A stretch of 42,096 nucleotides of DNA. It comes from an uncultured Dehalococcoidia bacterium (GTDB lineage Bacteria > Chloroflexota > Dehalococcoidia > SM23-28-2). A program made the translations under genes and the position numbers. The first letter of the stretch is position 1, and the number at the start of each line of letters is the position of its first letter. Positions 1-31,127 of this stretch are shown here, piece after piece. Below the pieces are notes generated by a model, which saw only the letters and a list, made by a program, of their open reading frames with translations, made no database searches and was not told the origin of the DNA. The stretch lies in NCBI GenBank assembly GCA_964354065.1, contig CAYGYF010000001.1, positions 1-42,096 of the forward strand, in the 5' to 3' direction.

Positions 1-116
1 GCTTCGCCTGGTAGTCCGCGTAGAGGGGCGCACGCTTCGCCTGGTAGTCCGCGTAGAGGGGCGCAAACTTCGCCTGGTAGTCCGCGTAGAGGGGCGCACG
101 CTTCGCCTGGTAGTCC
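1..116 (-). repeat. 33-bp tandem repeat, about 3.5 copies, in-frame coding repeat
   Basis: Units at 1-33, 34-66 and 67-99, plus a partial unit at 100-116. Units differ at only 1-2 positions. 33 bp equals 11 codons in the minus-strand frame of the 1..454 CDS. The array may continue beyond the window. Confidence 0.9.
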
Positions 117-15983: not shown

Positions 15984-16441
15984 GGTGCCGTGATCTCGTT
16001 CTTGGTGCCGAACACGATGGCCGTCGCGTCCACGTCCTCGTGCAGTCCGGCGATCAGTTGGCCAAGGCGCTCATCCTCGATGCGCTCCGGCTCGTCGCCG
16101 CCGTCGTAGGCGAATGTGGTGGCAGTCGGCAGCAGGTCCATCAGGGCCCCCATGCAGGCATCGGCCCAGGTATCCATCAGGGACGCGCGGGCGTCGAGGT
16201 CGTCGAACTGCCGCACGATCAGGACGGTCCACTTCCACGAGCCCATTTTCGCCCCCGCGATACCCAGGGGCTCGATCTTGAGGTCCGGCCCCAGGAGCGC
16301 GGCGAAGGGCAGCGGGGGCTGGTGGCGCAGGCGCCCGCGCGTCACGTGCGTGACGCCGAGCGGCACCAGTTCCGCGGCGAGCTGAGCCAGAATCTCTGCC
16401 GCCTGCGCGGCGCTGTTGATGCCCGTCGTCAGGATTGGCAT
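15977..16441 (-). CDS. neck/tail completion protein (154 aa), function inferred from position only
   Basis: Track ORF between the HK97 gp10-like gene and the tail tube region. Confidence 0.45.
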   Translation of the reverse strand: MPILTTGINSAAQAAEILAQLAAELVPLGVTHVTRGRLRHQPPLPFAALLGPDLKIEPLGIAGAKMGSWKWTVLIVRQFDDLDARASLMDTWADACMGALMDLLPTATTFAYDGGDEPERIEDERLGQLIAGLHEDVDATAIVFGTKNEITAPC

Positions 16442-16451
16442 GGATTCCCTC

Positions 16452-17054
16452 CTACGTCGGCGGGTCGAATCTCGCGACGACCTTCGCGAGTGCTCTCTGG
16501 AATCTGGGCAGGTTCCGATGAAAGGCCGGAACCAAGTAGGGCCGCGGAGAGATGCCCGGGTGGATGACGCTACGCACCACCACGTCGGCCGCCACTCTGC
16601 TCCGGTCCCATCCCCGCGCCGTCAGCCGCTTGCCCTTCATCGGCCGATAGAGATTGCGTCCCATCCTCGCCTGCCCGCTCGCCGTGATGCGGAACTCCTT
16701 GCCCACTGGACTCGCCCAGGCCAGCGCCCTCTTGAACCGCGGCTCGATCACGTACTTGGCGTGCCGCGGTCCCCAGAGGCCGGTGCCGTACTCCAGGTGC
16801 GGAGCGTAGGGCACGTTGGTGCCGATAGTCGCACTCACGTCAGCGCCGCTAGCGCGCAGCACCGTGTGGAGCGAGGACCGCAGGACGTTGGTCGAGACCG
16901 GGATGGCCATCTTCGCCTCGCGCTCGATGCGCAGGGCGTAGACCCCGACGAGGCCTACCAGCCGGGCGTGCATGCCGTTGCCGTTCTCGGCCATGCGCGC
17001 CGCCCACCGTTTAGCCTCGGTCGCATTCGTCAGTCGCGCGACTATCCCGATCAT
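16452..17054 (-). CDS. HK97 gp10-family head-tail joining protein
   Basis: ATG 17054 overlaps the upstream stop (ATGA). IPVSTNVLRSSLH...TNVPYAPHLEYGTG matches the gp10-family pattern (P-V-x-T-G-x-L-R-x-S ... Y-A-x-x-x-E-Y-G). Confidence 0.7.
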   Translation of the reverse strand: MIGIVARLTNATEAKRWAARMAENGNGMHARLVGLVGVYALRIEREAKMAIPVSTNVLRSSLHTVLRASGADVSATIGTNVPYAPHLEYGTGLWGPRHAKYVIEPRFKRALAWASPVGKEFRITASGQARMGRNLYRPMKGKRLTARGWDRSRVAADVVVRSVIHPGISPRPYLVPAFHRNLPRFQRALAKVVARFDPPT

Positions 17055-17422
17055 GGTTGCCACTTCCGCAGGCCGGATTCCATCACGTGTGCAGTGCCCG
17101 CGGCCGCCGGCGCCGGGTCCCACGGATTGAAGAACTTGCTCGGCCCGGCATGGACGCGATACGAGACGTTGGCGACCACCACCAGGTCAGTCTCCCGCAG
17201 GTCGGCCTCCTCGGTATACATCACCGCATCACTCTCGACCATCGCCCCCACCGCCGATTCCTGGAAGGCCTTGCCCGAGGTCACCAGCATGCAGGGCAGC
17301 GCGGCGATATCCGGGATCGCGGGATACGCCTCGAGCTGCTGCCCGTCGGCCTCGGTGGTTAGCGCCAGGTGCGATACCGCCGCTCTCTGCACCAGCATCG
17401 CCAGCAGGATAGGATCGCTCAT
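17051..17422 (-). CDS. head-tail adaptor/head closure-like protein (123 aa)
   Basis: ATG 17422 lies 1 nt after the upstream stop. The call rests on position and size within the connector block. Confidence 0.5.
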   Translation of the reverse strand: MSDPILLAMLVQRAAVSHLALTTEADGQQLEAYPAIPDIAALPCMLVTSGKAFQESAVGAMVESDAVMYTEEADLRETDLVVVANVSYRVHAGPSKFFNPWDPAPAAAGTAHVMESGLRKWQP

Positions 17423-17423
17423 G

Positions 17424-18149
17424 TCACGCCTTCTGCCCCGGCACGCCAAGGAACGCCTTCGAGACCCAGGCCTTCTCCATCGCGTCCGCGCGGTTGAGCA
17501 TGGCCGTCACGATGCCGGCGAGGGAGGCCGAGTCCTTCGTGTAGGGGCCGAGGGTCAGGCGGCCGCCCGATGCCAGTATGGTCAGGCCCGAAGCGGTGGC
17601 CACAACTCCCAGGGCACAGAACTCCAGCGCTTCGACGAGAAGGTCCTCATCGCCCGCCGGCACGGTGCTCGCGTCCGGGTAGGGAAATGTCCAGAGCCAG
17701 GCGAGGGTATCGTTCGCGGCCGGCGGTGGAGTAAGGCGGACATTCTGGCCCGGCGAGTCCTGGACGAATGAGGCCCCGAATTGCCTCCCCCAGGCGTCGA
17801 GTTGCCCTCGGTAGATATCGACCTGCGAGGGCTGATGGAACTCGATGATCACGTCGCCGAGCTGCTGGATAGGGTACGCGGGCACGAATCCGAGCACAGA
17901 TGCCCAGAGGTCAAGCACATCATCCGAATAGGGCTGCACATCGAGGCAGATGTGGCCCGAGACGGCACCGCTGGTCGGCGGCGGATACTCCTCCTGTCCG
18001 GCGATGGCCGAGAAGGTCAGCAGGAGGATGCGCGGCCGCTGGCGGGAATACGCCTGCACCGCTCCCGCCGCGGCCGCGGTCAGTTGCGCGGCGCTCAGTC
18101 CGGTGATGCCCAACAGTGCCGCCTGCGCCTCGAGCTGTGCCTGGGTCAT
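17424..18149 (-). CDS. putative head-tail connector protein (241 aa)
   Basis: Track ORF. The N-terminus LLGITGLSAAQLTAAAAGAVQAYSRQ resembles gp6-like connector N-termini. ATGA overlap with the upstream gene. Confidence 0.45.
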   Translation of the reverse strand: MTQAQLEAQAALLGITGLSAAQLTAAAAGAVQAYSRQRPRILLLTFSAIAGQEEYPPPTSGAVSGHICLDVQPYSDDVLDLWASVLGFVPAYPIQQLGDVIIEFHQPSQVDIYRGQLDAWGRQFGASFVQDSPGQNVRLTPPPAANDTLAWLWTFPYPDASTVPAGDEDLLVEALEFCALGVVATASGLTILASGGRLTLGPYTKDSASLAGIVTAMLNRADAMEKAWVSKAFLGVPGQKA

Positions 18150-18433
18150 ATCGCGCTCACTTTCGCGTCCGCTGCCGTCGCCTCGACAACGCGGCCGCAG
18201 TACCGGCAGCGATAGCGCGGCGGCTGCGCGACCTCGCCCTGCTCCCGCCGCAGTCGATCCGGCGAGTGGTCGATGTGGTCATCGCCCGCGGCCGCGCCCG
18301 CGAAGGCCCCATACCGACTGTACTCGCACTGCGGGCAGGTGTCCGCGGGAAGACCCAGGTTCACCTCGCCCGCTGGCGCGGGCATGACTGCTGCCACCAC
18401 TTTCCTCGTGATATCTGCGAGAGTCGTCGCCAT
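18146..18433 (-). CDS. Cys4 zinc-ribbon-like small protein (95 aa)
   Basis: Track ORF. Contains CPQC ... CRYC pairs. Confidence 0.55.
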   Translation of the reverse strand: MATTLADITRKVVAAVMPAPAGEVNLGLPADTCPQCEYSRYGAFAGAAAGDDHIDHSPDRLRREQGEVAQPPRYRCRYCGRVVEATAADAKVSAI

Positions 18434-18434
18434 G

Positions 18435-19430
18435 TTAGCTCCTCGGCAGCCCGATCAGGTCTCGCCAGGCCGCCTCCCACTGGTCGAGGTTGTTCCGCTC
18501 TACCGACCACCGGCGGGCCTCGGGCCCCATTAGGTCGCGCTGCTGCAGTGCCTCAGCGACGGCGTCGGCCCACTTCGCTGCCGGCGCGTCCGCACCGTCC
18601 GGCACGATCAGGCCCCATCCGTACAGGTCGAGCCGCACGGCCTTCGGGTAGGCGAACAGCCCGGCCGGGCTCACCACCATCGGCAGTCCGCAGGCCATCG
18701 CCTGCAACGCGGCATAGGAGTTGCCCTCCGCCCGCGACGCCGAGAGGAACACATCCCCCTGCGCCATGCGCGCGGCCTCGGATCCCGTCTCGCCGCCGAG
18801 CTGCCGGAACTCCACGTCGGGCAGTAGCCCCCGGAGCGCGGCCACCACATCGCCGCCTTTGCGCACACCCTCGGATGGATAGAGCACCAGCGGCCGCGTG
18901 CGCGGGGTCTTCTCGCGAGGCCGCGGGCGGAACTCATCGGTGTCAACCGCGTTCGGGATCACCGCCACCGCCTCGACGCCGTAGTGCTCGCGCAGTTCGA
19001 TGCGCGTCTTCTCGGAGACGGCTACCACCTTGCGGCGCGCGTACTCTGCCGCCTGGATCTCGCCAAGGCGCGCGGCGTGGGCGACGAAGGGCGGATCTGC
19101 CGCACTGTCCGCGGCGAATCCTCGCCATGTCCCATGCGCGACGGAGTAGACGTCATAGGGCGGAGCCGCCGGCAGTCCTCGACCCCAGAATCCGTCGACG
19201 ATCACGGCCTTGGCACCGGCCAAGGCGCCAGACTCATGGAGCCAGGCTGAGAGTTGCTCGGCCGCGTTGACCTCGGCCACGCCGCCACGGTATCCCTCCG
19301 GGTGACTCGACCAGGCCCAGACCGCCGCCCCGAGACGCTGGCGCGCGTACTCGCCGAACACGGGCACGCCGCCGCTGTGGAAGTCCGGCGCATCCCGCCG
19401 GAACCACGCAATATGATGGACCTTGCTCAC
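18435..19430 (-). CDS. glycosyltransferase, GT-B fold (GT4-like)
   Basis: GTG 19430 is preceded by GAGGAGG and overlaps the upstream stop (GTGA). SASRAEGNSYAALQAMACGLPMVVS corresponds to the GT4 E-x7-E region. AVIPNAVDTDEFRP is typical of this family. Confidence 0.7.
   Translation of the reverse strand: MSKVHHIAWFRRDAPDFHSGGVPVFGEYARQRLGAAVWAWSSHPEGYRGGVAEVNAAEQLSAWLHESGALAGAKAVIVDGFWGRGLPAAPPYDVYSVAHGTWRGFAADSAADPPFVAHAARLGEIQAAEYARRKVVAVSEKTRIELREHYGVEAVAVIPNAVDTDEFRPRPREKTPRTRPLVLYPSEGVRKGGDVVAALRGLLPDVEFRQLGGETGSEAARMAQGDVFLSASRAEGNSYAALQAMACGLPMVVSPAGLFAYPKAVRLDLYGWGLIVPDGADAPAAKWADAVAEALQQRDLMGPEARRWSVERNNLDQWEAAWRDLIGLPRS
19344..19412. repeat. 69-bp direct repeat, copy A (67/69 identical to 21361..21429)
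   Basis: Hand alignment gives two mismatches. Encodes IAWFRRDAPDFHSGGVPVFGEYAR at the N-terminus of the GT4 gene. Confidence 0.9.
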
Positions 19431-20038
19431 GACTTCCTCCTCGCCATCCAGCATTGATCGACGACCTCGACCGCCTCGTAGTCCCCGCCCTGCGCGAGTC
19501 CGTCGCATACCGATACCACTCCCGGATAGCCCTCCCGATAGTCATGCAGGCAGAGGTAGCCGCCCGGCAGCACCCAGGGAGCGAAAGCCCACACATCGCG
19601 TGACGCTCCCTCCTCGCTGTGGTCGGCATCGATGTGGAGGAGCGCCACCCCGCGATTCCAAGTCCTGGCCACGTCTCTGGAGTCGGCCTGCATCGAGTAG
19701 ATCATGCCCGGGTATCCGAGGGAGGCGATGTTGATCTCAAACCGCCGCAGGTCCTGACCCGAGTACCATGTGTCAACCGCCCAGATCGGCGGCACCTTGT
19801 CCGCATGCAGGAGCGCGTGCGCGATGAAGCACAGGCTCCTCCCCTGCAGCGAACCGATCTCCAGGATGGGACCGTCCGGTGCCTGCACCGCGCACTCGCC
19901 CAGTGCTAACCCCTCGGCGAGATCGTACTGGCCCCACACCGACCAGAGGTGCCACCAGGCGCGCTCGCCGAGGGGGAAGGCTTCAGCGAGGGACTGATAC
20001 TCTGCGGCCCGGTCGCCGTAGATGTGCTGGAGGCTCAT
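19427..20038 (-). CDS. class I SAM-dependent methyltransferase (Methyltransf_24/CmcI-like)
   Basis: ATG 20038 overlaps the upstream stop. ILEIGSLQGRS (motif I-like) and LLHIDADHSEEGASRDVWAFAPWVLPGGYLCLHD are typical of this O-methyltransferase group. Confidence 0.65.
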   Translation of the reverse strand: MSLQHIYGDRAAEYQSLAEAFPLGERAWWHLWSVWGQYDLAEGLALGECAVQAPDGPILEIGSLQGRSLCFIAHALLHADKVPPIWAVDTWYSGQDLRRFEINIASLGYPGMIYSMQADSRDVARTWNRGVALLHIDADHSEEGASRDVWAFAPWVLPGGYLCLHDYREGYPGVVSVCDGLAQGGDYEAVEVVDQCWMARRKS

Positions 20039-20862
20039 AACGCGCACTCCTCGGGTTGCCCATCCGCGGTGAAGGTCGGCAGGCCGCGCGCAGTCGCTTC
20101 CTCCGCTCGCATGAACCACCAGGGCATCCCGCCACCATTCGCGACGATCACCCAGCCGGCCTGCTCGAGGACCGGCAGCAGGCTGTCGGTGTAGACGTGA
20201 ACCGGATTCCCGTCATCCTTCGGCCGCCCAGTCACCCCGGAGCTGCAGATCGCGATGCGTGCCCGGTCGAGGAGTTGCCGCAGGACCGCCGGCGCGTTGG
20301 CGATGTGCTCGAGGACCTCCAGGCAGAGTACCGCGTCCCAAGTCTCGCTGCTCTCCAGCACCGCCTCCGGGTCCCTGGGCCGGTGGGTGTTCAGGTCGAG
20401 TCGACCGCCCAACCGCCAGCACAGGAACTCCCGCGCATCGCCAGGCAGGTCGCAGTAGGTCACCGGCACGTCGAGTTGGGCCGCCAGGTGCAGGCCGATC
20501 TCGCCGACGCCGCTGCCGAAGTCGAGCACTGATCGCACCTGCAGGCGCTCGCACATCTCCCGCACCGACTCGGGCCATCCGTATTCCCACTCGCAGAGCG
20601 CCCAGTTCAGCCAGTTCCAGACCGAGTCCTGGCCCGAGGAGGCGCCCAGGGCGAAGAGCAGCGCCCCTCGCGTCACGCCGAAGAACTGCTGGGCCTCGAG
20701 GCGGAGCTGGGCCATCCGGTCCCGGGTGCAGGCCGACGTCCACTGCGAGGGACCGGCCCCGGCTGCGCTGGTGGCGGCCAGTGGCTCGCATCCGCCCTGG
20801 GGCTGGTCTACCCCGCCGGGCTCCTCCTGATCGCGCTGCCGCAGGAAGGTGTCCGTCGTCAT
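20035..20862 (-). CDS. class I SAM-dependent methyltransferase
   Basis: Track ORF. VLDFGSGVGEIG (motif I) and WDAVLCLEVLEHI (motif post-II/III). Confidence 0.7.
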   Translation of the reverse strand: MTTDTFLRQRDQEEPGGVDQPQGGCEPLAATSAAGAGPSQWTSACTRDRMAQLRLEAQQFFGVTRGALLFALGASSGQDSVWNWLNWALCEWEYGWPESVREMCERLQVRSVLDFGSGVGEIGLHLAAQLDVPVTYCDLPGDAREFLCWRLGGRLDLNTHRPRDPEAVLESSETWDAVLCLEVLEHIANAPAVLRQLLDRARIAICSSGVTGRPKDDGNPVHVYTDSLLPVLEQAGWVIVANGGGMPWWFMRAEEATARGLPTFTADGQPEECAL

Positions 20863-21116
20863 CTCGCCACCAACCTCGACGCGATCTTACCCGCCGCCCG
20901 CTTCCGGGCTCGCCGCGTCATGTGCAGACCGCTCGCCCCGCGCACCGCCTCGAGCCAGATGCTCGATAGCCCGAGGAGGCAGTCGGCGAAGTCCCCGTAC
21001 CGCGCGGACCGCACCGTCGTCCGCCACCAGAACCGCAGCACCCGCCGCTGCATCACGTAGCGGTAGCCGCCCTCGACCTGCTCGATTAGAACTCTACGCC
21101 TGAGCATCTTTGTCAT
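20859..21116 (-). CDS. small basic hypothetical protein (about 85 aa)
   Basis: Distal part of track ORF 20859..21296. Candidate ATGs at 21116 and 21107. Its stop overlaps the methyltransferase start (ATGA). Start choice is uncertain. Confidence 0.4.
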   Translation of the reverse strand: MTKMLRRRVLIEQVEGGYRYVMQRRVLRFWWRTTVRSARYGDFADCLLGLSSIWLEAVRGASGLHMTRRARKRAAGKIASRLVAR

Positions 21117-21516
21117 CCCCATGCTTCGCCGCGGCACTCCGCGCGAGTTCCGCCCCCACATCGAGGCCCAACCGAAGATCGGCGATGGCCGCGAGAGCCC
21201 GTTCCCGCTTACCTCTGGGGCCCAGGTCTGGAATCGCGACCGTCCACCCCTTGCGTTCGATGGTCCCCGATGCGCCCACGCAGTCCAGTTGTACACTGAA
21301 GCCTACCACCATGGTCGGCTCACCATTGACAGTCACCGAAGACCCCTCGAGGCGCAGCCTCGCGTATTCGCCGAACACCGGCACGCCGCCGCTGTGGAAG
21401 TCCGGCGCATCCCGCCGGAACCACGCAATGTAGCCCCTGTCTATCACGATATAGATCCGCGTCGCATCCGGGTTGAACCGCCCGGAAGGTTCCGCCCCGC
21501 CGTTCGTCTCTCCCAT
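21094..21516 (-). CDS. hypothetical protein (140 aa) sharing a 24-aa segment with the GT4 N-terminus
   Basis: ATG 21516 overlaps the upstream stop by 1 nt. MGETNGGAEPSGRF...IAWFRRDAPDFHSGGVPVFGEYAR is identical to the start of the 18435..19430 product, after which the two diverge. Confidence 0.55.
   Translation of the reverse strand: MGETNGGAEPSGRFNPDATRIYIVIDRGYIAWFRRDAPDFHSGGVPVFGEYARLRLEGSSVTVNGEPTMVVGFSVQLDCVGASGTIERKGWTVAIPDLGPRGKRERALAAIADLRLGLDVGAELARSAAAKHGDDKDAQA
21361..21429. repeat. 69-bp direct repeat, copy B
   Basis: See copy A at 19344..19412. Confidence 0.9.
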
Positions 21517-23642
21517 CAGTCGCTGCCTCCTTGCTGTGCCGCCTGCCATCGTGCCAGCCTCCCTCTGAATACCTGCTCGTCGTGGTCCCAGGCCGCCTTC
21601 GTCCCCTCCGGCCGCCGCCCGCCGCCCGCCACGAAGTGCCAACCCACCGCGCCCGTGTCTACGAGGAGGCGATGCCCGCCCAGCAGGTGCAGTCGGATCG
21701 ACGCGTCTGACTCCTCCCGCTGCCCGAACCGCGAGTAGCAATCCGCGAATCCGCCCGGCTCTCCCGGTAGGTGGGCCTCCTCCAGGTAGCGACTCCGGTA
21801 CATCCACGTCGAGTACAGGTGCTCGCACTCGACCACCTCGCCGGCGCCGCGCCACCAGCGCATCTGCAGCGGAGCCGCTCCCACCAGCATCTCGGCGATG
21901 CGGTTGTCCATGCCGCGCTTGCCGCGGTGGGCGGCATAGTCCAGTTCCTGCGCATTCCACTCCGGGTAACTGCCGCCCACTGCACCCACGTCGGCGGCCC
22001 GGTTGATCAGCCGATAGAGGCGCTCGCTGAAGTCGGCCGTGGCCGGCAACACATCATCGTCGATGCGCAGCACCAGGTCCGTACCCAACCACCGCCGCGC
22101 TATCTCGTGGTTCTGCGATGCACCCTTGCCTGAGCCCGCCACCACCTCGGCGCGAATCCCACGGTGTTTCATCAGCGCCACGAGGTGCGCGATGGCCGGG
22201 TTCTGCGCCAGGCCGCCGCCGTCATCCACGATGCAGACGGCTTGCGGCAGTCTCGTTTGGCAGAGGAGCGCGCCGAGGAGGGCCGCGAGATAGCCAGGTC
22301 GGTCCCGCGTGGGGATGCCTACCCCGAGGGTCTCATCGGCCGTGATAGGGGAGGGGGGAGGTACTGCCGGCGAGGAGGTGACGGCCGCCGGGCGGGGGTG
22401 ACCGTCGTCGTTCGACAGCACCTCGACCCCCACGTCCAAACCCAACACACCCGCGAACCCGCGCGCCATGCGCGCGTAGGAGAACCGCTGCCGGAGGCCG
22501 TTGGCCTCGGCGACCTGGTGGGCCTCACGCCGCGGCTCCTCGACCATACGGCGCATCCATACCACGATCTCGTCCACGTTGGCATCGGCCCAGTGAGGTT
22601 CCTCGCCGGGGCCCCACCAGTGCGGATTCGCCTCGTTCCGGGAGAGGGTGTAGCCGAATAGGGTCGCATTCTCGGGCGTGGTATAGTCGAGTTGGCCCGA
22701 CCAACCGGTGGTGCCCAACCGACACCCGCAGGCGAGCGCCTCCAGTCCGGTCAGTCCGAACCCCTCGCAGCGTGACGGCATGATGTAAGCGCCGTGCTGC
22801 GCCGCGCGCCGGTAGGTCGCAGCGATCTGGGCTGGCTCCCAGGTGTCGTAGACGTAGGTGAGTTCAGGGGCCTTGTCCCCGAGGCGCTTCCGCCAGGCCG
22901 CGACCTGCTCCTGGCACCACCCTTTGCGGCCCCAACCGTAGTCGTAATCCTTGAGCACCAGCGTCACGGGATCGTCACGGTCAAAGGCCTTGCCATAGGC
23001 CTCCAGCGCCAGGTCGAACCCCTTGCGCGGATTCTGCGCGCCGAGGGAGAGGAAGACAAACCGATTGCCGGCGAGGTCCGCGACCGGGCCCTCGGGCCGG
23101 TAGAGGTCGGTGTCGATGCAGTGGTTGACCACATGGCAGCGTTCCGGCGCGATCCCCGATCGCACCAGCGCGTCCCGGATCGCCTGCGAGCCGCAGATGA
23201 TCCCGTCCCACGCGCGCAGGAGCGCGATGTGCGAGGCCGGGAACATGTCCGCGTCCGGGTGCGGCCACGCGAAACGCCCCGCGGGTCCCTCGAATGTGGC
23301 GCTGTTGCACAGGTAACTCTGGCCGGTCTGGGCCTGGTCTGTCGCGCGCCAGGGGAACCGGTCGACTCGCACGCCCAGGGTGCGCAACGCACGCGATAGG
23401 CCTTCGGTCAGCAGGCAGAGTGAGTGCCCGCAGGCCGGCTTGCACAAGGTGTCGCCATGCCCGCGGGAGATGCCTCGGTAGAACGCGATGGACTTCGCGG
23501 TATCGAGTTCGGCCACCACCGCCACGTCGGGCCAACCCGCGGCGATCTCCAGAGGGACCCTCGCCGTCCCGCCCGGCTCGATCACGTAGATGCCATGGAG
23601 TTGTTTGATTCGCGTCGTGTTCTGCACCAGCACATCGGCCAC
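21516..23642 (-). CDS. two-domain glycosyltransferase: N-terminal GT-B (GT4-like) fused to C-terminal GT-A (GT2-like)
   Basis: GT-B signature: PSRCEGFGLTGLEALACGCRL. GT-A signature: GVGIPTRDRPGYLAALLGALLCQT, IVDDGG, RIDDDV (DxD). The start is ambiguous: GTG 23642 has GAGGAG 6 nt upstream, and ATG 23681 is the alternative. Confidence 0.75.
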   Translation of the reverse strand: MADVLVQNTTRIKQLHGIYVIEPGGTARVPLEIAAGWPDVAVVAELDTAKSIAFYRGISRGHGDTLCKPACGHSLCLLTEGLSRALRTLGVRVDRFPWRATDQAQTGQSYLCNSATFEGPAGRFAWPHPDADMFPASHIALLRAWDGIICGSQAIRDALVRSGIAPERCHVVNHCIDTDLYRPEGPVADLAGNRFVFLSLGAQNPRKGFDLALEAYGKAFDRDDPVTLVLKDYDYGWGRKGWCQEQVAAWRKRLGDKAPELTYVYDTWEPAQIAATYRRAAQHGAYIMPSRCEGFGLTGLEALACGCRLGTTGWSGQLDYTTPENATLFGYTLSRNEANPHWWGPGEEPHWADANVDEIVVWMRRMVEEPRREAHQVAEANGLRQRFSYARMARGFAGVLGLDVGVEVLSNDDGHPRPAAVTSSPAVPPPSPITADETLGVGIPTRDRPGYLAALLGALLCQTRLPQAVCIVDDGGGLAQNPAIAHLVALMKHRGIRAEVVAGSGKGASQNHEIARRWLGTDLVLRIDDDVLPATADFSERLYRLINRAADVGAVGGSYPEWNAQELDYAAHRGKRGMDNRIAEMLVGAAPLQMRWWRGAGEVVECEHLYSTWMYRSRYLEEAHLPGEPGGFADCYSRFGQREESDASIRLHLLGGHRLLVDTGAVGWHFVAGGGRRPEGTKAAWDHDEQVFRGRLARWQAAQQGGSD

Positions 23643-23707
23643 TGCCCGCTCCTCGCCCCGCAGGATGGGGCGGCGCACCATCCAGGCTACGCCGCCCCGA
23701 CAGTCGC

Positions 23708-26700
23708 CTACCAATCAACGCCCACGACGCCCGGCTGGGTCGTCACGGTTGCGTAGCAGTTGCCCACAACCTTCGCGTACCCGAACCGGCTCATCGCCGA
23801 CTCAGACTCGCAGAAAGTCCCGTCCGCCACGAACGGCGTGGTGACGTAGAGGGGGATGAACGGGCAGAAGATCGTGCCCGCGTCCGGCCACTCTGGGCCC
23901 TTGCGCCCGAGGAGCAGAAGGTCGGTCGGGAAGAAGTCGGCATCGCAGCCGTACACCTTGAGAGTCGGAGAGCCCTGGATCGTGCCGATCAGGTTCAGGC
24001 CGACCTCCCAGTCTCGCGCCTCCGGGTCGCCGGTCGTGGCCACCCACGACTGCAGCGACATGAGGCGGATCAGGGCGTTCTGTCCGGCCACCACCCAGTT
24101 CGCTCGGGCGCGGCGGGTCGCTCGGATCAGGCCGTCGCCGCGGAGAATGAACTGGTAGAGCTTGCGCTCCCACTCGGTGTGGTTGGTGTAGCCGAGCAGC
24201 GGCATCGCGGTGCCGTAGTTGATGTTGCCCGCGGTGATGATGCCCGCCGGGTCCGCGGCAGTGCGCATCACGTTCAGCAGCAGCGCATTCACCTCCCTGG
24301 CGATCTCGTCGGCCATGAAGTTCACCATCTCGCTGGCGATGTTCAGGCCGAAGTCGGCCAGGATGTTCTGGCGCACCTCGGTCGACCACTCGGCCCGGAG
24401 CTTCTTGGTGTCCATGGTGATGTCGCTGTGTGAGAGGGTGAGCTTCACCTCGCGCATCGGCGACTGCTCGCTGATGTGCTGTGCGTACTCGCTCTGGAAC
24501 TGACCCGGGATGGCGGGGTCGCCGAGGCTCGGATCGTACAGGAAGTTCAGGAAGTGGACGATCCCGGTGCTGCGATTCATCGGCTGCACCGAGCACAGTT
24601 CGCGGGCGATCAGCCGCGCCCACACCTGCCGGATGATGGGCAGGATGTAGGGGACGGTCTGCGCGACCGCTGCGACGCCGGTCCACTCCATCCGGGCTCG
24701 CATATCCGGATGGAGGTGCGGCCGGAAATACACCCCGCGGTCAAGGCGAAGCATGTTCTCCGCGATCACGCGGAACTGATGCTTCTCGTTGCCGGGGTGG
24801 TAGCCGGGGAACGGGAGATTGCGGCCCATGTAAGCGACGATGGGGTCCTCGGGGTCGCTGGACGAACGGAGGCCGTTGTCCGGGAGGCCCTCGGTCAGAA
24901 GGTCGATGGCCTCCTGAATGTCGCGCGGCTTGTCGGCGTCACGGAGCTGGCCCAGCTGGAAGAGCTTGGCGCGCTCCTTGGTGACGCCCTCGCGCGAGAG
25001 CGCATCGTGCACGGGCGAGAGGCCCCTGCCGGTGGGCTGACCGTTGATCACGATCATGCCCATCTCGGTCAGGTGGCGCTGCGTCTGCTCCAGGGTCGGG
25101 GCGATCTGCACAGGGTCGGTGACCTCGCTGAGGCGGAGATCCAGGAACTTGCGGGCCGGCTCATTCCAAGCCGCGATCTCCGGGCGTTCCATGATCGCCT
25201 TGCGGGTCTCGGTCAACACCGCGGTCGTCACGCCCGCCTTCTTCTCGGCTTCCTGCTCCGAGATGAAGGTGTTGACGCGCGCCATGGTCTCCTCGACCTT
25301 GGCCAGCACGTCGCCAGTCGGCGCGGCCGCGACAACGGGCTTCGTCTCGGTCGCCACAGCAGCATCGGCCGCGGCAGGATCGCCCTCCGCCGGCTTGCCA
25401 TCACCGTTGACTTTGCCGGCCAGCGTCTCCATCACCGGCTTGAGGCCCGCGGTGATCAACTCACGCGTTTTCGCTTCGAATTCAGCCAGAGTCATTTGCT
25501 CCAGCACCTCATCGATGATCTCGCCCTGTGCGTCGTCCTCCACGCGCGTTGGGTCTGCCGCAGGCGAGACCCGCTCGCTGAAGCTCGTGACTCCGGCGCC
25601 ATCGGCGCCGGCTCCGAGCACGAAGTCCCAGCCGCCCCAGTGTTCTAGGGCGGAGGTCTCGTCAACCACCTCGACGGTTTTCCCGTCGCGCACATCCCTT
25701 TTGGTCGTCGCGAATGTCCTACTCGATACCTGGACCGGGACGCCATAGCGGATCTGTTTCTGCACGTCGAGGCCGGCCGCGGTCGGGATGATAGTCGTCT
25801 CGCCGCGCAGCCAACCCTCGGCCACGTGCAGGTTCCGCCAGGGCGTGGTCACCGTCGATGCCAACCGCGGGTAGCCGTCCGCGGGATGGTCCTGCTCGCC
25901 CAGCCATCGCCGAGCCCGCTCGGTCTGGGCCGTGCTCTCGGCCACGAGTTGGTCGGCGAGTTTCTGCGTGTAGACCCGACCGTTCTTGGTCGGCGTCCCC
26001 ACCGGCGTCAGTCGGCACTCGACCGTCATCACCGGATCGCCGCGGTCGTCGGTCGTCTCCGTCACCACCCGCAGGCCATCCCTGAGGTCGGCACGGAAGG
26101 TCTCGACGAGTTCGGTCTCCATACCGAGGGCGCGCCCGGTCGACGCAGGCACATCAGGCGTAGGCGGGGGCGTCGCGGCGGGTGAACCTGTGGGGATGGT
26201 CTGGTCGCCGGCGCGCAGGCTCACCGTGACCGGCTGCACGTTGCTCAGCACTATTGCCCCGTCGTCGCCGCGCGCCCAGACCGCGGAGTAGAGACTATCG
26301 TTCCTGCCCGACACCACGACCTGCCCGGGCCGGGTACCCTCGACGGAGCAGTAGGCGTGCTCCTCGTCGGCCCCGAACAGGGCGGCGTTATCGCGCACCG
26401 CCTTGCGCAGATCGGCGATGGTCGCCTCGTAGGTACCGGAAATGGTCACCCATGCCTCGAGCAGCGGCTCCGCGTCCCCATCGACTGGCAGGTATTCCGT
26501 GAAGGAGTCGCCGAGCCGGAAGGCCTCCTTGATGCTCGCAGGGATGTCCGTGTCCTTGACCTTCAGCCGCTTGTAGGCAGCGCGGATCTTTGCCTTCGCT
26601 CCCGCCACCGCGTCGGCCGGGAGCTGCACCTTCTGCCCGCGGAACCCACCCGGGGAGAAGGCGGCCGCGGCCCGGCCCAACTGCGCGACTGTGACTTTCG

Positions 26701-26911
26701 CGGTCGGAGACTCCCACAGGCGGAGCTTCCACTCGGAGGGTTTGTCGGGGTCTGGCGCGTAGGCATAGGCCTCCCGCGGGTATGACTCCCCGCCCTCCGT
26801 TTTGGTCGCCTCCATCGTCGGCGCGGCCTGCTCCATCAGCGCCAGGAGCCGATCGCCTTCGGCGTCCCTCGCCTCCCGTAGGCGAGCCTTGACCTTCTCT
26901 GTTCTCGTCAT
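23708..26911 (-). CDS. head polyprotein: N-terminal domain + T4 gp21-like prohead protease + scaffold-like linker + major capsid protein (1067 aa)
   Basis: Internal ATG 26911 of track ORF 23708..27199; the upstream part is R/G junk. KNGRVYTQKL, LGEQDHP and VQVSSRTFA line up with the gp21 motifs NKRLYPK, LGELNHP and GVSSRGLG. A long acidic/helical linker follows. The C-terminus has ARELCSVQPMNRSTGIVHFLNF, typical of HK97-fold/gp23-like capsid proteins. Confidence 0.75.
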   Translation of the reverse strand: MTRTEKVKARLREARDAEGDRLLALMEQAAPTMEATKTEGGESYPREAYAYAPDPDKPSEWKLRLWESPTAKVTVAQLGRAAAAFSPGGFRGQKVQLPADAVAGAKAKIRAAYKRLKVKDTDIPASIKEAFRLGDSFTEYLPVDGDAEPLLEAWVTISGTYEATIADLRKAVRDNAALFGADEEHAYCSVEGTRPGQVVVSGRNDSLYSAVWARGDDGAIVLSNVQPVTVSLRAGDQTIPTGSPAATPPPTPDVPASTGRALGMETELVETFRADLRDGLRVVTETTDDRGDPVMTVECRLTPVGTPTKNGRVYTQKLADQLVAESTAQTERARRWLGEQDHPADGYPRLASTVTTPWRNLHVAEGWLRGETTIIPTAAGLDVQKQIRYGVPVQVSSRTFATTKRDVRDGKTVEVVDETSALEHWGGWDFVLGAGADGAGVTSFSERVSPAADPTRVEDDAQGEIIDEVLEQMTLAEFEAKTRELITAGLKPVMETLAGKVNGDGKPAEGDPAAADAAVATETKPVVAAAPTGDVLAKVEETMARVNTFISEQEAEKKAGVTTAVLTETRKAIMERPEIAAWNEPARKFLDLRLSEVTDPVQIAPTLEQTQRHLTEMGMIVINGQPTGRGLSPVHDALSREGVTKERAKLFQLGQLRDADKPRDIQEAIDLLTEGLPDNGLRSSSDPEDPIVAYMGRNLPFPGYHPGNEKHQFRVIAENMLRLDRGVYFRPHLHPDMRARMEWTGVAAVAQTVPYILPIIRQVWARLIARELCSVQPMNRSTGIVHFLNFLYDPSLGDPAIPGQFQSEYAQHISEQSPMREVKLTLSHSDITMDTKKLRAEWSTEVRQNILADFGLNIASEMVNFMADEIAREVNALLLNVMRTAADPAGIITAGNINYGTAMPLLGYTNHTEWERKLYQFILRGDGLIRATRRARANWVVAGQNALIRLMSLQSWVATTGDPEARDWEVGLNLIGTIQGSPTLKVYGCDADFFPTDLLLLGRKGPEWPDAGTIFCPFIPLYVTTPFVADGTFCESESAMSRFGYAKVVGNCYATVTTQPGVVGVDW

Positions 26912-26952: not shown

Positions 26953-27147
26953 CTAGAAGCCCGGTCCTTCGGTTAGACTTCCGACCTCTCGCCACTCGAT
27001 CAACAGCGAAACCCTCAGTCCGCGGCCGTGGCCCTCGATGCTCGATAGGCTCACCACGTACGGCTCCCCGAGCTTGGCCTGCGCGCCCTCGACCGCGAGT
27101 CTCGCCACCAGCGCAATCGTCTCCCCGCCCATCGCTTCTTTCTGCAT
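26953..27147 (-). CDS. hypothetical protein (64 aa)
   Basis: ATG 27147 overlaps the upstream stop. Starts MQKEAMGGETIALVARLAVEG. Confidence 0.45.
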   Translation of the reverse strand: MQKEAMGGETIALVARLAVEGAQAKLGEPYVVSLSSIEGHGRGLRVSLLIEWREVGSLTEGPGF

Positions 27148-27377
27148 CACCCGCCCTCCTGCGGCCGCCCGATCCACTTTCCATCGCGGATAATACCACG
27201 CTTTACCGCAATGCGATAGATGGGCAAGCGTTGAAATGTGGCCAGGGACAGGCCCTGCTGCTCCAGCCAGGCAGCGAATTCCTCCGTACCGTAGGGCGGC
27301 AGATCCCAGCCCTGCTTTGTCCAGTCGGCGTTCGTGTCGACCTCGTCGAGGTTCAGATCGTAGACTTCGGCGCTCAT
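27147..27377 (-). CDS. hypothetical acidic protein (76 aa), candidate partner/immunity protein of the MuF-ART
   Basis: ATG 27377 overlaps the MuF-ART stop (ATGA). Starts MSAEVYDLNLDEVDTNADWTKQGWDLPPYGTEEF. Confidence 0.5.
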   Translation of the reverse strand: MSAEVYDLNLDEVDTNADWTKQGWDLPPYGTEEFAAWLEQQGLSLATFQRLPIYRIAVKRGIIRDGKWIGRPQEGG

Positions 27378-29590
27378 TTTGGTGCCGCCACCTTCGCCAT
27401 GCTGGAGATCACCTTCCCCCACGCCAAGCGTTCGTCCTTCCCCCACGCCAAGCGTTCGTCCTTCTCCAGGGACCAGATGGCGGCCGCAATCGGTTCGGAG
27501 TCGCCCGCCAGCACCACGGCCTCATATTCTCCCAGGCAGCCATATCCGCTGCGGGCCGTCCCGATGATCCGCCCGATCGGTACGTCCATCGCCATCACCA
27601 CCCCGTGGGGTGTGCCCTTCCCATAGGCGAATCCCACGGCCGTGTCGTAGTTGGCCGAGAAGGAACTCATCGGCTGGAGGTGCGGCCGCATGTTGATGCC
27701 CAGGGGTTGCATCTCCCTCTTCCCCGCCTTCACGGCGGCGGCGTTGGCCCGCTTGAACTTGTCCCAGGGAAGTCCCTTCGGCGGATGTCCCGCGTCGTAT
27801 TTCATCCCGCGGAACAGCCGCATGTGCGTGATGCCGTTTTCCTTCGCCCACTCCTGGGTGTTGTCGTGCATGGCCCGCAGGAAGGCGCGGTAGGCCTTAC
27901 CGTTCCTGCCCAGCATCTCCCCCACCTTATCCCGCATACTCGGGCTCAACGTCCTCATCCATGCCTTTTCGCCGAGGGAGAACTCCTCCCGCGCTGCGAT
28001 CTGCATAGCCAGGGCCCGCACGTCGTCGTCAGCGCTGGTCCCCGCCCATCCCTGGATAAGATCATTGACCCGCGAGAGGTGGGCGGACTGATACTGAGGG
28101 CCTGTCCCCGGCACACGCTTTACGAAGGCCTGCCAATCGGCATTCCCCTCCAGGCGTTGTGCAACCGCCTGCACCACCTTGTCCTTCTCAATCGGCGCCG
28201 CGGCGCGAATGTCCTCCCAGCCGGGCGCGGGAGTGCCCGACGTGTTGGGCAGGCCTCGGGTGAACTGGATCATCTCCTGGTCGGCCTGCCGTCGCCAGAT
28301 GGTTTCGTCGTCATTCTGCCACCGCGTCGTCGGCTTGTGCCAGGGATGAACCTCGGCAGTCGGCTCGACGGCAGCCGGCGGGGGCTCCGGCGCTGGCACC
28401 TTCGCCCGCGGAACGCGCGGCGCCTTCGCCTTCGGGATCTTCACCGCCTTGGGCCCTTTCGGGAAGACCGGCCCGGCGGCCAGCACTTCCGGCGGCGGCG
28501 GGGTCTTCGACAGCTCCAGCCAGGTCGCGGCCTTCGGCACCTCGGGGGTGATCACCTGCGCGGTCGGCGTCTCGGCGGCCGCAGCCATCGCCTCCTCGCC
28601 CATCGCCTGCGCGCGCATGCGGTCGAGGTCCTGCTCGGAGGCCACCACTCCGCAAAGGCAGTGAGGATGCAGCGGCGGCAGGTCCGGCGACGTGGCCGGG
28701 AAGAGTTTCCCCTCCCGCATGGCGCAGTCTGCGCAGGGCACCGCGGCCGTGATCCACTCCACCATCTGGACGCCCTGCCCGAGGTAGACCTGCCGGGAAC
28801 CCTCCGTCCTGGCCCGCACCGACTCCGTGCGCCCGATGCGCTCCGCCTGGTAACTGCTGAGGCCCGAGAACGTCTCCCGGATTCGCTCGCCCATCGTGAT
28901 CGTGCTGTCGCCGGCGTCGAGGCCGTCGATGATCACCTCGCGCAGCACCTGCTGATGCTCCTGCACCACGAGCACCGACAGGCGGTCGCCGTAGTAGCCG
29001 GCGTAGTCGGCCAGCGCCTTCTCGGCCGCCGGGTCCTTGAGCAGCCAGTCCGCACCGAGGCCGAGCGTCGCGGCGGCGTCCTGGGCACCGGTGAGCATCG
29101 CGCTCTCGAAGAGGCCGCGGAAGGTCTCGGCGAAGTCCGCCACGACGGTCTCGGGCATCTCGACCGCGCTCACCACCACCTGCAGCGGCGAGAGCGCCTC
29201 GAGCATCGCCTCGCCGCGCAGGGAGGCCGCCAGGGACGCCTTCTGCTCGTCAGACAGCGAGACCAGTCCCTCGATGCGTTTGCGCCACTGCCCGCGCACC
29301 AGCCTCCGATCGGCACCGGGCGTCCCGACCACCGCCCGCCAGTTCTCCCGGGCTCGCTCCACCGCCAGGTCCGACCGGAACGACGACCGGACCAGGTCGG
29401 GCAGGATCGACTGCGCCGGCATGCGCCAGACGCGCCAGAAGTGCTGCTCGTGCCCGCGCACGAGCGCGCGCGCCGCCAGCAGCATCCCGTGATGGCCGGG
29501 GAGGTCCTCAGCCTCGCGCAAGAGGCGCAGGGTAGGGATGAGCACCCGCAAGGCGCCCATTGCCTCCCGCCGCGTCACCGAACCATTCAT
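27374..29590 (-). CDS. MuF-like minor head protein fused to a C-terminal ADP-ribosyltransferase domain
   Basis: MuF signature: ERIGRTESVRARTEG ... PPLHPHCLCGVV. A Pro/Lys-rich linker follows. Then the R-S-ExE triad: MRLFRG, PMSSFSAN, GEYEAVVL. ATG 29590 has GAGGT upstream and overlaps the portal end by 83 nt. Confidence 0.75.
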   Translation of the reverse strand: MNGSVTRREAMGALRVLIPTLRLLREAEDLPGHHGMLLAARALVRGHEQHFWRVWRMPAQSILPDLVRSSFRSDLAVERARENWRAVVGTPGADRRLVRGQWRKRIEGLVSLSDEQKASLAASLRGEAMLEALSPLQVVVSAVEMPETVVADFAETFRGLFESAMLTGAQDAAATLGLGADWLLKDPAAEKALADYAGYYGDRLSVLVVQEHQQVLREVIIDGLDAGDSTITMGERIRETFSGLSSYQAERIGRTESVRARTEGSRQVYLGQGVQMVEWITAAVPCADCAMREGKLFPATSPDLPPLHPHCLCGVVASEQDLDRMRAQAMGEEAMAAAAETPTAQVITPEVPKAATWLELSKTPPPPEVLAAGPVFPKGPKAVKIPKAKAPRVPRAKVPAPEPPPAAVEPTAEVHPWHKPTTRWQNDDETIWRRQADQEMIQFTRGLPNTSGTPAPGWEDIRAAAPIEKDKVVQAVAQRLEGNADWQAFVKRVPGTGPQYQSAHLSRVNDLIQGWAGTSADDDVRALAMQIAAREEFSLGEKAWMRTLSPSMRDKVGEMLGRNGKAYRAFLRAMHDNTQEWAKENGITHMRLFRGMKYDAGHPPKGLPWDKFKRANAAAVKAGKREMQPLGINMRPHLQPMSSFSANYDTAVGFAYGKGTPHGVVMAMDVPIGRIIGTARSGYGCLGEYEAVVLAGDSEPIAAAIWSLEKDERLAWGKDERLAWGKVISSMAKVAAPK
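27417..27464 (-). repeat. perfect 24-bp tandem duplication inside the MuF-ART 3' end
   Basis: ccccacgccaagcgttcgtccttc occurs twice (27417-27440 and 27441-27464). It encodes KDERLAWG twice. Confidence 0.95.
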
Positions 29591-31127
29591 GCTCGTCTAC
29601 CTCAACGCCGCTCTCGGGCGGCGCCTCTATGCCCAGGGTCTCGCAGGCCACGACCATCAGCGCGTCGGCCATCTCCCGCAGCGACTGCCGCCGCTCCCCA
29701 GCGGGCATGGCCGCGGCGTTCGCTCCCATCGCGTCCGCGCTCGCCTTCAGCCACCGGTCCCTCTCCTCGGCGCTCGCCACCACGTACCGGTCGAGTAGCA
29801 CCTCCCTCGGAATCCCGATCAATGTGGCGATGATCTGGGCAGCCTGCGCCCGGGTCAGTTCGGTTTTCGCCTCGGCCGCGTCGTCCGTGGTCGAGACGGT
29901 CGGGAATGACAGGCCCACCGGGTTGGCCAGCGGGTCCAGGCCCCGCAGGATCAGGTGGATGGAGATGACCTTTAGGTGGCCGGCCCGGATATCGCCCTGC
30001 AGCGTGCGCACCGTACGAGCGAACTGCTTGTCCTCGTACGAGATCCCGCCGTCGCCGAGGGAGGCCCGGGCGGCCTCCTCGCCGCCCATGTTCAGGTAGC
30101 GCATCGGCACGCCGATCTTCCCGATGACCTTCGCCCGCATGTACCGCACGTCTCCGATGTTCTGGAGCTGGGCGTTGACGGGCGAGTACGGCTCCAGCCC
30201 GACCTTCGCGATCTGTACGCCGGCCGGGACCGGAATGAAGAAGTCGTCGGTAGCCACCGAGGGCGAGTCCCGCCGGGAGGTGCCGGCCGTGTTCGAGAGT
30301 TGCCGGCGCTGGCGGATAGCGTCGGTATACTCCTTGATCTGCGCCTTGATCTCGGTCGCCCCCCTCGCCGGGTCGATGGGGATGTAGTGGACGATCCTGT
30401 CGCCGGCGCGGGCGAGCCGGATCTGCACCATCCCATCCTCCTCGGCCTGCAACCGCTGCCAGTCCCGCTCACAGTCCAGGACCCCGCGGCCGTAGATGCC
30501 CTCGTCGTCGGGGCGATGCTTATAGTGAGTCACTTGCCAGTCAGCCATCGGGATGCCCGAGCCGTCCTGCTGGTAGTAGGGCCTCTGCTCCCACGGCGGG
30601 TCAAGGGGATTGCCGTACGGGTCCCGGCGAATCCACATCTGATTCTCGGGGAGAAGCTTGTACCGCGCCACCCTGGTGCCCGATGGGTCGAGCGTCACCT
30701 CGCGCATCTCGTTCCCGAACTTCAGCAGCCGCCGGGCGATGGCCCACGACTCCTCCCGCAGGTGGAGCACGTCGCACAGCAACTCGACCTCGCCCGCAGT
30801 CCGCTGGTCCTCGCAGACGATCTCGAAGGCGCTGCCCTCGCCCTCCGCGGGCGCAGTCGCGGTGTCGGCGGTGATGTCCAAGGCCTTGGAGATCAGCCCG
30901 TCCTCGCGATCCATCCGCAGCCGAAAGGCGTGCTGCTCGGCGCGGTTCTGGGAGACCGACCAGAGCTTGGCGGTCGTGCTCAGGATGTCGATGTCCAGGA
31001 CGCCGCGTTCGCCGGCTCCGAGAGTCACGACCGGAGTCAGGTCGGCGGCGCTCGCCGGGCCGGGCGTCGGCCCGAAGAGGCGCGCCAGGCGGAGCCCGAT
31101 TGATCGCTGGATGTCAGTCAGAGTCAT
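29508..31127 (-). CDS. portal protein
   Basis: Track ORF. The call rests on size, position between terminase and MuF, and the RMDREDGLISKALDITADTA segment typical of portal N-domains. Confidence 0.75.
   Translation of the reverse strand: MTLTDIQRSIGLRLARLFGPTPGPASAADLTPVVTLGAGERGVLDIDILSTTAKLWSVSQNRAEQHAFRLRMDREDGLISKALDITADTATAPAEGEGSAFEIVCEDQRTAGEVELLCDVLHLREESWAIARRLLKFGNEMREVTLDPSGTRVARYKLLPENQMWIRRDPYGNPLDPPWEQRPYYQQDGSGIPMADWQVTHYKHRPDDEGIYGRGVLDCERDWQRLQAEEDGMVQIRLARAGDRIVHYIPIDPARGATEIKAQIKEYTDAIRQRRQLSNTAGTSRRDSPSVATDDFFIPVPAGVQIAKVGLEPYSPVNAQLQNIGDVRYMRAKVIGKIGVPMRYLNMGGEEAARASLGDGGISYEDKQFARTVRTLQGDIRAGHLKVISIHLILRGLDPLANPVGLSFPTVSTTDDAAEAKTELTRAQAAQIIATLIGIPREVLLDRYVVASAEERDRWLKASADAMGANAAAMPAGERRQSLREMADALMVVACETLGIEAPPESGVEVDEHEWFGDAAGGNGRLAGAHPYPAPLARG

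Follow-up and report, generated by a model that had tools for sequence, protein, structure and literature searches.

A T4-lineage head gene with protease, scaffold-like linker and capsid protein in one reading frame, and a predicted internal start

The window analysed here, a stretch of 42,096 nucleotides (nt), is the whole of contig CAYGYF010000001.1 in a fragmented metagenome-assembled genome (246 contigs; GCA_964354065.1, filed as an uncultured Dehalococcoidia bacterium), and it carries phage genes only. One open reading frame (ORF) on its minus strand, 23708..26911, encodes 1067 amino acids (116.5 kDa) plus a stop codon and comprises N-terminal modules, a protease, a scaffold-like linker and a capsid protein. 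We consider it probable that the ORF represents a tripartite T4-lineage head gene, which would give two nested products, process itself at glutamate sites and carry its N-terminal modules inside the head. All window genes and gene parts located below are on the minus strand.

The capsid protein occupies residues 743-1067 (23711..24685; 36 kDa). It matches Pfam Gp23 (PF07068) at 128 bits (E = 7.6e-37, residues 805-1053; cut-off 24.4) and the T4 gp23 structures in PDB at E = 1e-11 over two aligned stretches. The T4 insertion domain is missing: query residues 798-814 span residues 69-177 of the mature gp23 chain, which the alignment skips, and the Gp23 profile has the same gap, its positions 46-117 remaining unmatched.

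The protease, a T4 gp21-type (S77) prohead serine protease, extends over approximately residues 271-446 (25574..26101) and ends at an invariant (F/Y)-x-E446. It matches PHROG 207 (head maturation protease) at E = 5.8e-15 over residues 282-456. When a profile built from ten protease segments was searched against PDB, T4 gp21 (5JBL) was the sole significant structure (E = 4e-6, 153 residues). His342 (25886-25888, in GEQDHP) and Ser396 (25724-25726, in VQVSSR) fall opposite alanines of the 5JBL chain ('LGELNAP' and 'GVASRG'), positions that we take to be the catalytic His and Ser, mutated in the crystallised construct; Asp429 (25625-25627, in GGWDF) aligns with the Asp of 5JBL 'GVDAVWG'. These three residues are invariant in 10/10 aligned sequences, and the motifs that flank them (NGRVY, GExDHP, VQVSSR and GGWD) in all homologues. 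Proteases of the T4 family use a His/Ser/Asp triad, cleave after Glu and auto-cleave their own C-terminus (PMC5694885).

Against Pfam S77 (PF03420) the window protease itself reaches 15.3 bits, under the curated cut-off of 27, a score that favours the alternative of a degenerate, inactive remnant kept as scaffold mass only, with maturation occurring without cleavage or through a host protease. We regard this as highly improbable in view of the invariance of triad and motifs, the scores of relatives that do pass the cut-off (35.8 and 38.4 bits in close homologues, up to 47.8 in distant fusions) and the lack of any other protease on the contig. A preliminary description had proposed a T4 gp21-type protease and an HK97-fold/gp23-like capsid domain and had suggested comparing each segment with profiles and structures; the comparison recovered both families, and by these profile matches the two domains belong to S77 and Gp23.

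The same description had placed one 1067-residue ORF at these coordinates without stating the strand, and had raised the prospect of an overlooked stop splitting it. Translation from the ATG at 26911 to the stop at 23708-23710 meets no internal stop. The same GC content by codon position (0.67/0.50/0.84) is seen in the rest of the genes on this contig, which is 67% GC. Upstream of the ATG the frame continues open as far as 27199, where a GTG could give a longer protein, but the translation of this extension is Arg/Gly-rich and unlike all homologues, and two small ORFs occupy the region in other frames; the GTG start was therefore rejected and ATG 26911 is likely the start.

The fusion is not confined to the window. 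A word-indexed search gave nine homologues, 38-53% identical, all with both PF03420 and PF07068, and IMG/VR gave seven related loci. A search of 1.84 billion representatives returned 2402 matches, and the best 150 of these include dozens of proteins of 800-1225 residues matching both the protease and the capsid parts. Among nine distant fusions tested, eight carry S77 plus Gp23 (five of these above the S77 cut-off), often with ChaB and/or DUF6582 domains ahead of the protease. Wherever DNA was obtained for relatives, gene order is constant: terminase, T4-type portal, MuF-like gene, fusion and a 700-730-residue GT4/GT2 glycosyltransferase, then sugar and methyl enzymes, GT4, neck genes, GT9, tail tube and tape measure.

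These relatives bear on whether the fusion could have arisen by a frameshift or misassembly from what are really separate genes for protease, scaffold and capsid protein, or whether the ORF is a decaying pseudogene. The source, one contig of a fragmented metagenome-assembled genome, lends such an artefact some plausibility. However, the same stop-free fusion is found in more than 30 independent contigs (JGI, ENA, Logan, IMG/VR), codon-position GC is uniform and gene-like, and the catalytic and structural residues are invariant, so that we give this account almost no weight. The fusion is not an assembly artefact; many independent contigs share both its architecture and its neighbouring genes.

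Two fusion queries were run against cultured phages (50,697 records), and neither is covered to 80% at any place. The strongest matches in that set are T4-like and jumbo myoviruses, in which the protease and capsid parts match separate adjacent genes, gp21 and gp23, with gp22 between them; the fusion is therefore colinear with the T4 head-core operon. A scan of 185,579 species-representative genomes found no relatives, so that set gives neither evidence of prophage copies nor a clue to the host.

Within the window, a profile search found a single S77 match and a single Gp23 match, hence no second protease or capsid gene, and the capsid profile gave no gp24-like vertex paralogue on the contig. 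No scaffold-sized gene lies between the portal gene and the fusion, an interval that holds only the MuF-like gene and ORFs of 76 and 64 residues. The preliminary description was thus right that separate protease and scaffold genes are lacking. One uninterrupted ORF accordingly holds three functions in order, with no separate copies of them. Its protease is of the S77 type, neither ClpP as in phage Gifsy-2 nor S78 as in certain actinophages, both of which are compared below.

The linker, residues 447-742 (24686..25573), ends at an invariant E742|W(T/Y). An AlphaFold2 model from a ten-sequence alignment predicts only helices with disordered gaps, at a predicted local distance difference test score (pLDDT) of 63. 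The first 114 residues (447-560) are acidic, with an isoelectric point (pI) of 4.4, and residues 561-742 are better conserved. Foldseek found no match in PDB for the linker model (residues 446-745; best E = 3.7). The linker can fairly be called scaffold-like on account of where it lies, what it is composed of and its predicted helices. It had been described as an acidic helical stretch of about 200 residues; the model likewise predicts helices, the length is nearer 296 and the acidic part is the first 114. A GYHPGNxxH motif (residues 703-711) was rejected as a catalytic or metal site, not being conserved in the distant fusion P0024.

Candidate cleavage sites were sought as alignment columns with a conserved Glu in ten sequences. 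Four glutamates, E270, E446, E495 and E742, are invariant in otherwise variable linkers, and each has a hydrophobic residue at P3 in 8-10 of the ten. E270 (ELVE|TF) stands directly before the protease and E446, (F/Y)-x-E, directly after it; E742 is five residues ahead of the segment aligning with residue 21 of mature T4 gp23. Other conserved hydrophobic-x-Glu sites are at 27, 152 (before one of the N-terminal modules, module D), 468, 575, 616 and 674, and there is one at every domain boundary. These predicted sites fit the Glu specificity and C-terminal auto-cleavage of the family, and a cut at E742 would leave a capsid protein of 325 residues and 36 kDa.

The preliminary description had also suggested looking for internal starts, and this proved productive. 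The ATG of Met473 (25493..25495), at the junction of protease and linker, is the proposed in-frame start of a 595-residue scaffold-capsid product. A Shine-Dalgarno (SD)-like GAGGTG (25505..25510), complementary to the 3′ end of 16S rRNA, lies 9 nt upstream. The site has a predicted anti-SD binding energy of -9.2 kcal/mol, the best of 23 internal in-frame ATGs, and its motif and 7-11-nt spacing match the starts of the tail-tube (GACGAGGTG), MuF-like, TerL and methyltransferase genes. Between E446 and E495, the alignment of close homologues keeps Met473 as its sole invariant residue. Two further subfamilies also have an invariant Met column in their own alignments, which makes three separate alignments in all, and in most of the more distant fusions a Met is found 25-35 residues after the protease.

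The signal was examined at the DNA level, with subfamily DNA drawn from IMG/VR loci; this replaced a weak test in which any Met within 48 residues after the protease was counted (39 of 41 observed, 29 expected). An SD motif lies 4-12 nt upstream of 15/15 ATG-type sites (GGAGG at 5 nt, AGGAGG at 8 nt and AGGAG at 6 nt are examples), whereas only 12.4% of the remaining 558 in-frame ATGs in these genes have one. One clade without the Met (L027-L035) has an in-frame GTG at the equivalent place, with AGGAG 8-11 nt upstream in eight of its nine loci; such a motif occurs at only 3.9% of 440 start-like codons in those genes. Here AGGAG is encoded through differing residues: Lys-Glu, Glu-Gly-Glu, Gln-Gly-Ala or Gln-Gly-Asp. 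The lineages compared are 20-37% identical to one another. An SD and start codon kept in the nucleotide sequence through changing amino acids are hard to explain except as an initiation site. Two other internal positions were rejected: the scaffold/capsid boundary (Met737 and Met741), where the SD is weak and not conserved, and Met543, which despite a good SD energy is not conserved and has too short a spacing. We conclude that an internal in-frame start with its own ribosome-binding site at the protease/scaffold junction, its signal conserved across lineages, is well supported but unproven.

A volume estimate bears on the same point. Residues 1-742 amount to 80.5 kDa, and 415 copies of them (T=7 shell) to 33 MDa, or approximately 40,000 nm3 at 1.21 cubic angstrom per Da. 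Such a volume would take up roughly all of the space inside a T=7 procapsid (inner radius 20-24 nm), or 60-80% of the space inside a T=9 one. Full-length protein at every position would fill the lumen, and a product without the protease and N-terminal modules therefore seems necessary; with mainly the shorter subunit in the shell, the difficulty would disappear.

The gene might instead make the full-length protein only, with protease, scaffold and capsid at 1:1:1, the protease trimming itself in cis before or during assembly and the SD being left over from the start of an ancestral gp22 or arising from acidic codons as a side effect. Acidic residues are indeed frequent before the Met (mean 2.5 of 6, 0.85 expected) and GAG and GAC codons are purine-rich; the SD of the window clade overlaps a conserved D-E-V; and the annotated actinophage fusions are described as single products. 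On the other side, a relic should have decayed, whereas SD and start persist across the divergent lineages over different amino acids and even with GTG for ATG. SD strength and spacing at Met473 equal those at real gene starts of this phage, and a procapsid of T=7 or T=9 would, by our estimate, be overfilled if each capsid position held the full-length protein. We judge a single product unlikely.

Beyond the low S77 score of the window protease, several points weigh against the explanation that we prefer, a self-processing gene with two nested products. In the window clade the SD is encoded by a conserved Asp-Glu-Val/Ala, and conservation of the protein could explain it there. SD spacings of 9-11 nt are on the long side, the sites of two relatives are weak (L011, -4.1 kcal/mol; L012, -5.9 kcal/mol), and in the corresponding position of locus L036 no start preceded by an SD is found. 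Since the loci share ancestry, the counts above are to be read as non-independent trials. The volume argument assumes a triangulation number of 7 or 9. The prediction of the cleavage sites uses conservation only, and the hydrophobic-x-Glu tripeptide occurs commonly.

The preferred explanation would work as follows. One frame, colinear with gp21 (protease), gp22 (scaffold) and gp23 (capsid) and with two small accessory domains in front, would yield two nested in-frame products: the full-length protein of 116.5 kDa and the 595-residue scaffold-capsid protein from Met473, driven by GAGGTG and probably the more abundant. Both would co-assemble via their capsid domains around a T4-type portal, with scaffold, protease and N-terminal modules pointing inwards. 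The protease, concentrated in the procapsid, would then cut after Glu at hydrophobic-x-Glu sites (E152, E270, E446, E495 ... E742), dicing the scaffold and freeing a mature capsid protein of 36 kDa that starts at about Trp743. The N-terminal modules would enter the head on the minor full-length species, as internal head proteins or as assembly or activation factors.

The region before the protease had been put at about 330 residues; it is about 270 and modular. It begins with a helix (residues 1-35, 26807..26911; helix 3-28 in the AlphaFold2 model) that bears the conserved site LxE27. Next is module C (residues 36-135, 26507..26806), which is basic (pI 9.7) and carries YPxxAYAYxPDxxKPSxWKLRLWE...GGFRG...KAKIRAAYKxL. 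A disordered acidic spacer separates it from module D (residues 153-235, 26207..26455), a small alpha/beta domain preceded by LLE152, with GSYEATI...EATF...LYRAxW...V and a pLDDT of about 90 over residues 165-240 (AlphaFold2). A Pro-rich linker (residues 236-270, 26102..26206) leads to the invariant L-x-E270|TF.

Module C matches phrog_19463 at E = 5e-20 and, taken alone, upwards of 60 representatives whose architectures differ from the fusion (45-73% identity); in Pfam it has no match at E up to 1. Its membership of DUF6582 (PF20223) is not supported: hhalign against the DUF6582 segments of two distant fusions gave E = 0.15, which is not significant, and a probability of 0.4. DUF6582 fills the same slot before the protease in the distant fusions P0034 and P0062, and literature searches on DUF6582 returned nothing. 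Foldseek with the N-terminal model (residues 1-265, pLDDT 72) found no match in PDB (best E = 0.25); in BFVD the sole significant match was a 635-residue 'prohead protease' (E = 4.6e-4, low TM-score). Module C also has a second match, a weak one (29% identity, E = 4.4e-4), in a 175-residue open frame on another contig of the same metagenome-assembled genome (G000 contig C81:1294-1599, L002).

The modules are shuffled among close relatives. A ChaB-like helix is present or absent: it stands at the start of five homologues, and the window protein is without it. Module C is missing from four homologues, P0004 (L013:10001-13621) has a tandem pair of module D, and the L008 protein (L008:5783-8779) carries module C without module D. 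Outside the fusion family, module C recurs in many head-assembly proteins of phages, as the gene contexts of P0012, P0015 and P0018 show. It is found in gp38 of Salmonella phage 9NA, encoded immediately ahead of the decoration and capsid genes. The metagenomic proteins P0012 and P0015, encoded between MuF and a Mu-type capsid gene, combine module C with a domain like module D, a segment resembling a protease and a coiled coil. 9NA gp38 and the metagenomic ChaB/DUF6582-protease proteins resemble the window protein in having C/D-like modules before a protease and/or scaffold, between portal/MuF and capsid genes, and differ from it in that they end before the capsid protein and several have other protease or capsid families. 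Judged from these sequences, the N-terminal modules are recurrent front ends of prohead proteases. The first third of the protein had been called devoid of assignable function; no function is assigned here either, but it is no orphan, given that its modules recur before other prohead proteases.

P0020 (884 residues, ENA metagenome) has, behind its module C, a LigT/2H-phosphoesterase domain and after that a Mu-type protease (PF10123) and a scaffold; it is possibly a case of an enzyme carried into the head on a protease-scaffold protein. Internal proteins of T4 are ejected with the DNA and act in the next host. That the N-terminal modules are packaged head cargo, as opposed to assembly or activation factors, is conceivable but somewhat doubtful to us. 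More tentative still is the idea of the gene family as a natural capsid-loading platform, in which the abundant scaffold-capsid product would build the shell and the rare full-length form would anchor the protease and an interchangeable N-terminal cargo; the cargo would be freed at L-x-E and could be ejected with the DNA into the next host. Candidate cargo domains in relatives are module C, module D, ChaB and the 2H phosphoesterase. If true, such a platform would be a third route into phage heads, besides the capsid-targeting sequences of T4 and MuF fusions, and swappable N-terminal modules are in any case candidates for head-packaged proteins.

The nearest known system is T4 gp21/gp22/gp23 with the gp20 portal. 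The protease and capsid protein are homologous, the order is the same, the portal is of T4 type, and the propeptide cut is predicted after a Glu just before the N-arm. T4 has three genes where there is one frame here, the window protein lacks the insertion domain and its contig a gp24-like paralogue, and the scaffold part has no detectable similarity to gp22. The N-terminal accessory modules are a further difference, as are the siphovirus-type tail genes and the contigs of about 55-63 kb of relatives, compared with a 170-kb myovirus. Several distant S77-Gp23 fusions (L020-L035, IMG/VR) are on contigs of 96-114 kb, and the fused head gene is thus not confined to phages of about 55-60 kb. The gp20 portal, gp21 protease and gp23 capsid module is usually associated with large myoviruses; here the T4-type head module is one compact fused gene in siphovirus-like phages, and it is widespread in metagenomes.

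Salmonella phage Gifsy-2 reportedly makes protease, scaffold and capsid protein from one gene in that order, the product being processed to the mature capsid protein, and its protease is said to be ClpP-type and its capsid protein HK97/lambda-type. The window gene shares the order of the three functions and differs in its assemblin-fold S77 protease, gp23-family capsid protein, N-terminal modules and predicted internal start. The term 'tripartite capsid gene' is applied to Gifsy-2 with reference to Effantin et al. 2010, Virology 402:355, which is cited in PMC8538268. Actinophage capsid-protease fusions, which the preliminary description had mentioned, do exist, and ScienceWizSam gp14 (718 residues) likewise combines protease, scaffold and capsid in one protein, in siphoviruses of 56-58 kb. 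They are nonetheless of an unrelated type, with an S78 (HK97-type) protease, and ScienceWizSam gp14 lies next to an HK97-type portal; homology with the actinophage cluster AU fusion was rejected, as ScienceWizSam gp14 has no sequence similarity to the window protein.

Nested head genes are known as well. Lambda C/Nu3 gives a minor full-length protease-scaffold and an abundant, in-frame N-truncated scaffold from one gene. The herpesvirus protease shares the gp21 fold (PMC5694885), and the nested protease-scaffold/scaffold arrangement of herpesviruses (UL26/UL26.5) is conserved across Herpesvirales, with the scaffold approximately 10-fold more expressed (PMC11565193). Like both, the window gene is predicted to give a full-length protease-scaffold and an N-truncated in-frame product; unlike them, where the capsid protein is a separate gene, its predicted short product would itself carry the capsid, and in this the 595-residue product resembles the delta-domain-capsid protein of HK97. 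Tripartite capsid genes and nested head genes are thus already known, and the S77/Gp23 version is a new variant; literature searches found no T4-type capsid-protease fusion.

The parallel suggests that assemblin-fold-protease phages and herpesviruses share a scheme (rare protease-scaffold and abundant scaffold from one frame), here extended through the capsid, and a shared scheme of nested expression bears on the age of the strategy within Duplodnaviria. A single gene should be enough to assemble the procapsid, deliver the protease and clear itself, which would make it an attractive minimal system for the study of capsid assembly or for self-processing shells.

The minus-strand gene set of the window runs from replication initiator, ParB-methyltransferase and small and large terminase through T4-type portal, MuF-like protein and fusion gene to glycosyl- and methyltransferases, HK97 gp10-like protein, tail tube, tape measure and tail proteins. 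The T4-like portal and siphovirus-like tail reported earlier were both borne out: the portal (29508..31127) is of T4 gp20 type (PF07230, E = 1.4e-17), and the tail genes include a tail tube (PF18906), a tape-measure protein and a weak HK97 gp10-like match, with no tail sheath among them.

Upstream of the fusion is the gene of the MuF-like minor head protein (27374..29590), of 738 residues in the window, 834 in L012 and 320-369 in other relatives. The MuF domain spans only about residues 215-330 of the window protein, the remainder being a long extension. The last codons of the gene contain a perfect 24-bp tandem duplication (2.2 copies, window 27412-27464) that repeats the peptide KDERLAWG. 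The two small ORFs between this gene and the fusion (26953..27377), of 76 residues (27147-27377) and 64 residues (26953-27147), have overlapping stop and start codons (ATGA, GTGATG) and no family match; relatives likewise have 1-3 small ORFs between the MuF-like and capsid genes.

Directly downstream is a GT4+GT2 glycosyltransferase of 732 residues (21516..23714), its position kept in all relatives. It opens a region (14964-23714) in which a methyltransferase, GT4 and GT9 are found among neck and tail genes. This glycosyltransferase island is kept in every relative examined, often with epimerase and phosphodiesterase genes, and suggests virion glycosylation.

No terminal direct repeat joins the two ends of the contig. 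Its start (window 1-116) has a 33-bp unit repeated 3.5 times (95% matches), which may be an assembly-end artefact or a real repeat. In one relative, a gene of 74 residues (L013:3517-3741) has a weak Pfam match to the Acb2/Tad1 hairpin family of anti-defence sponge proteins.

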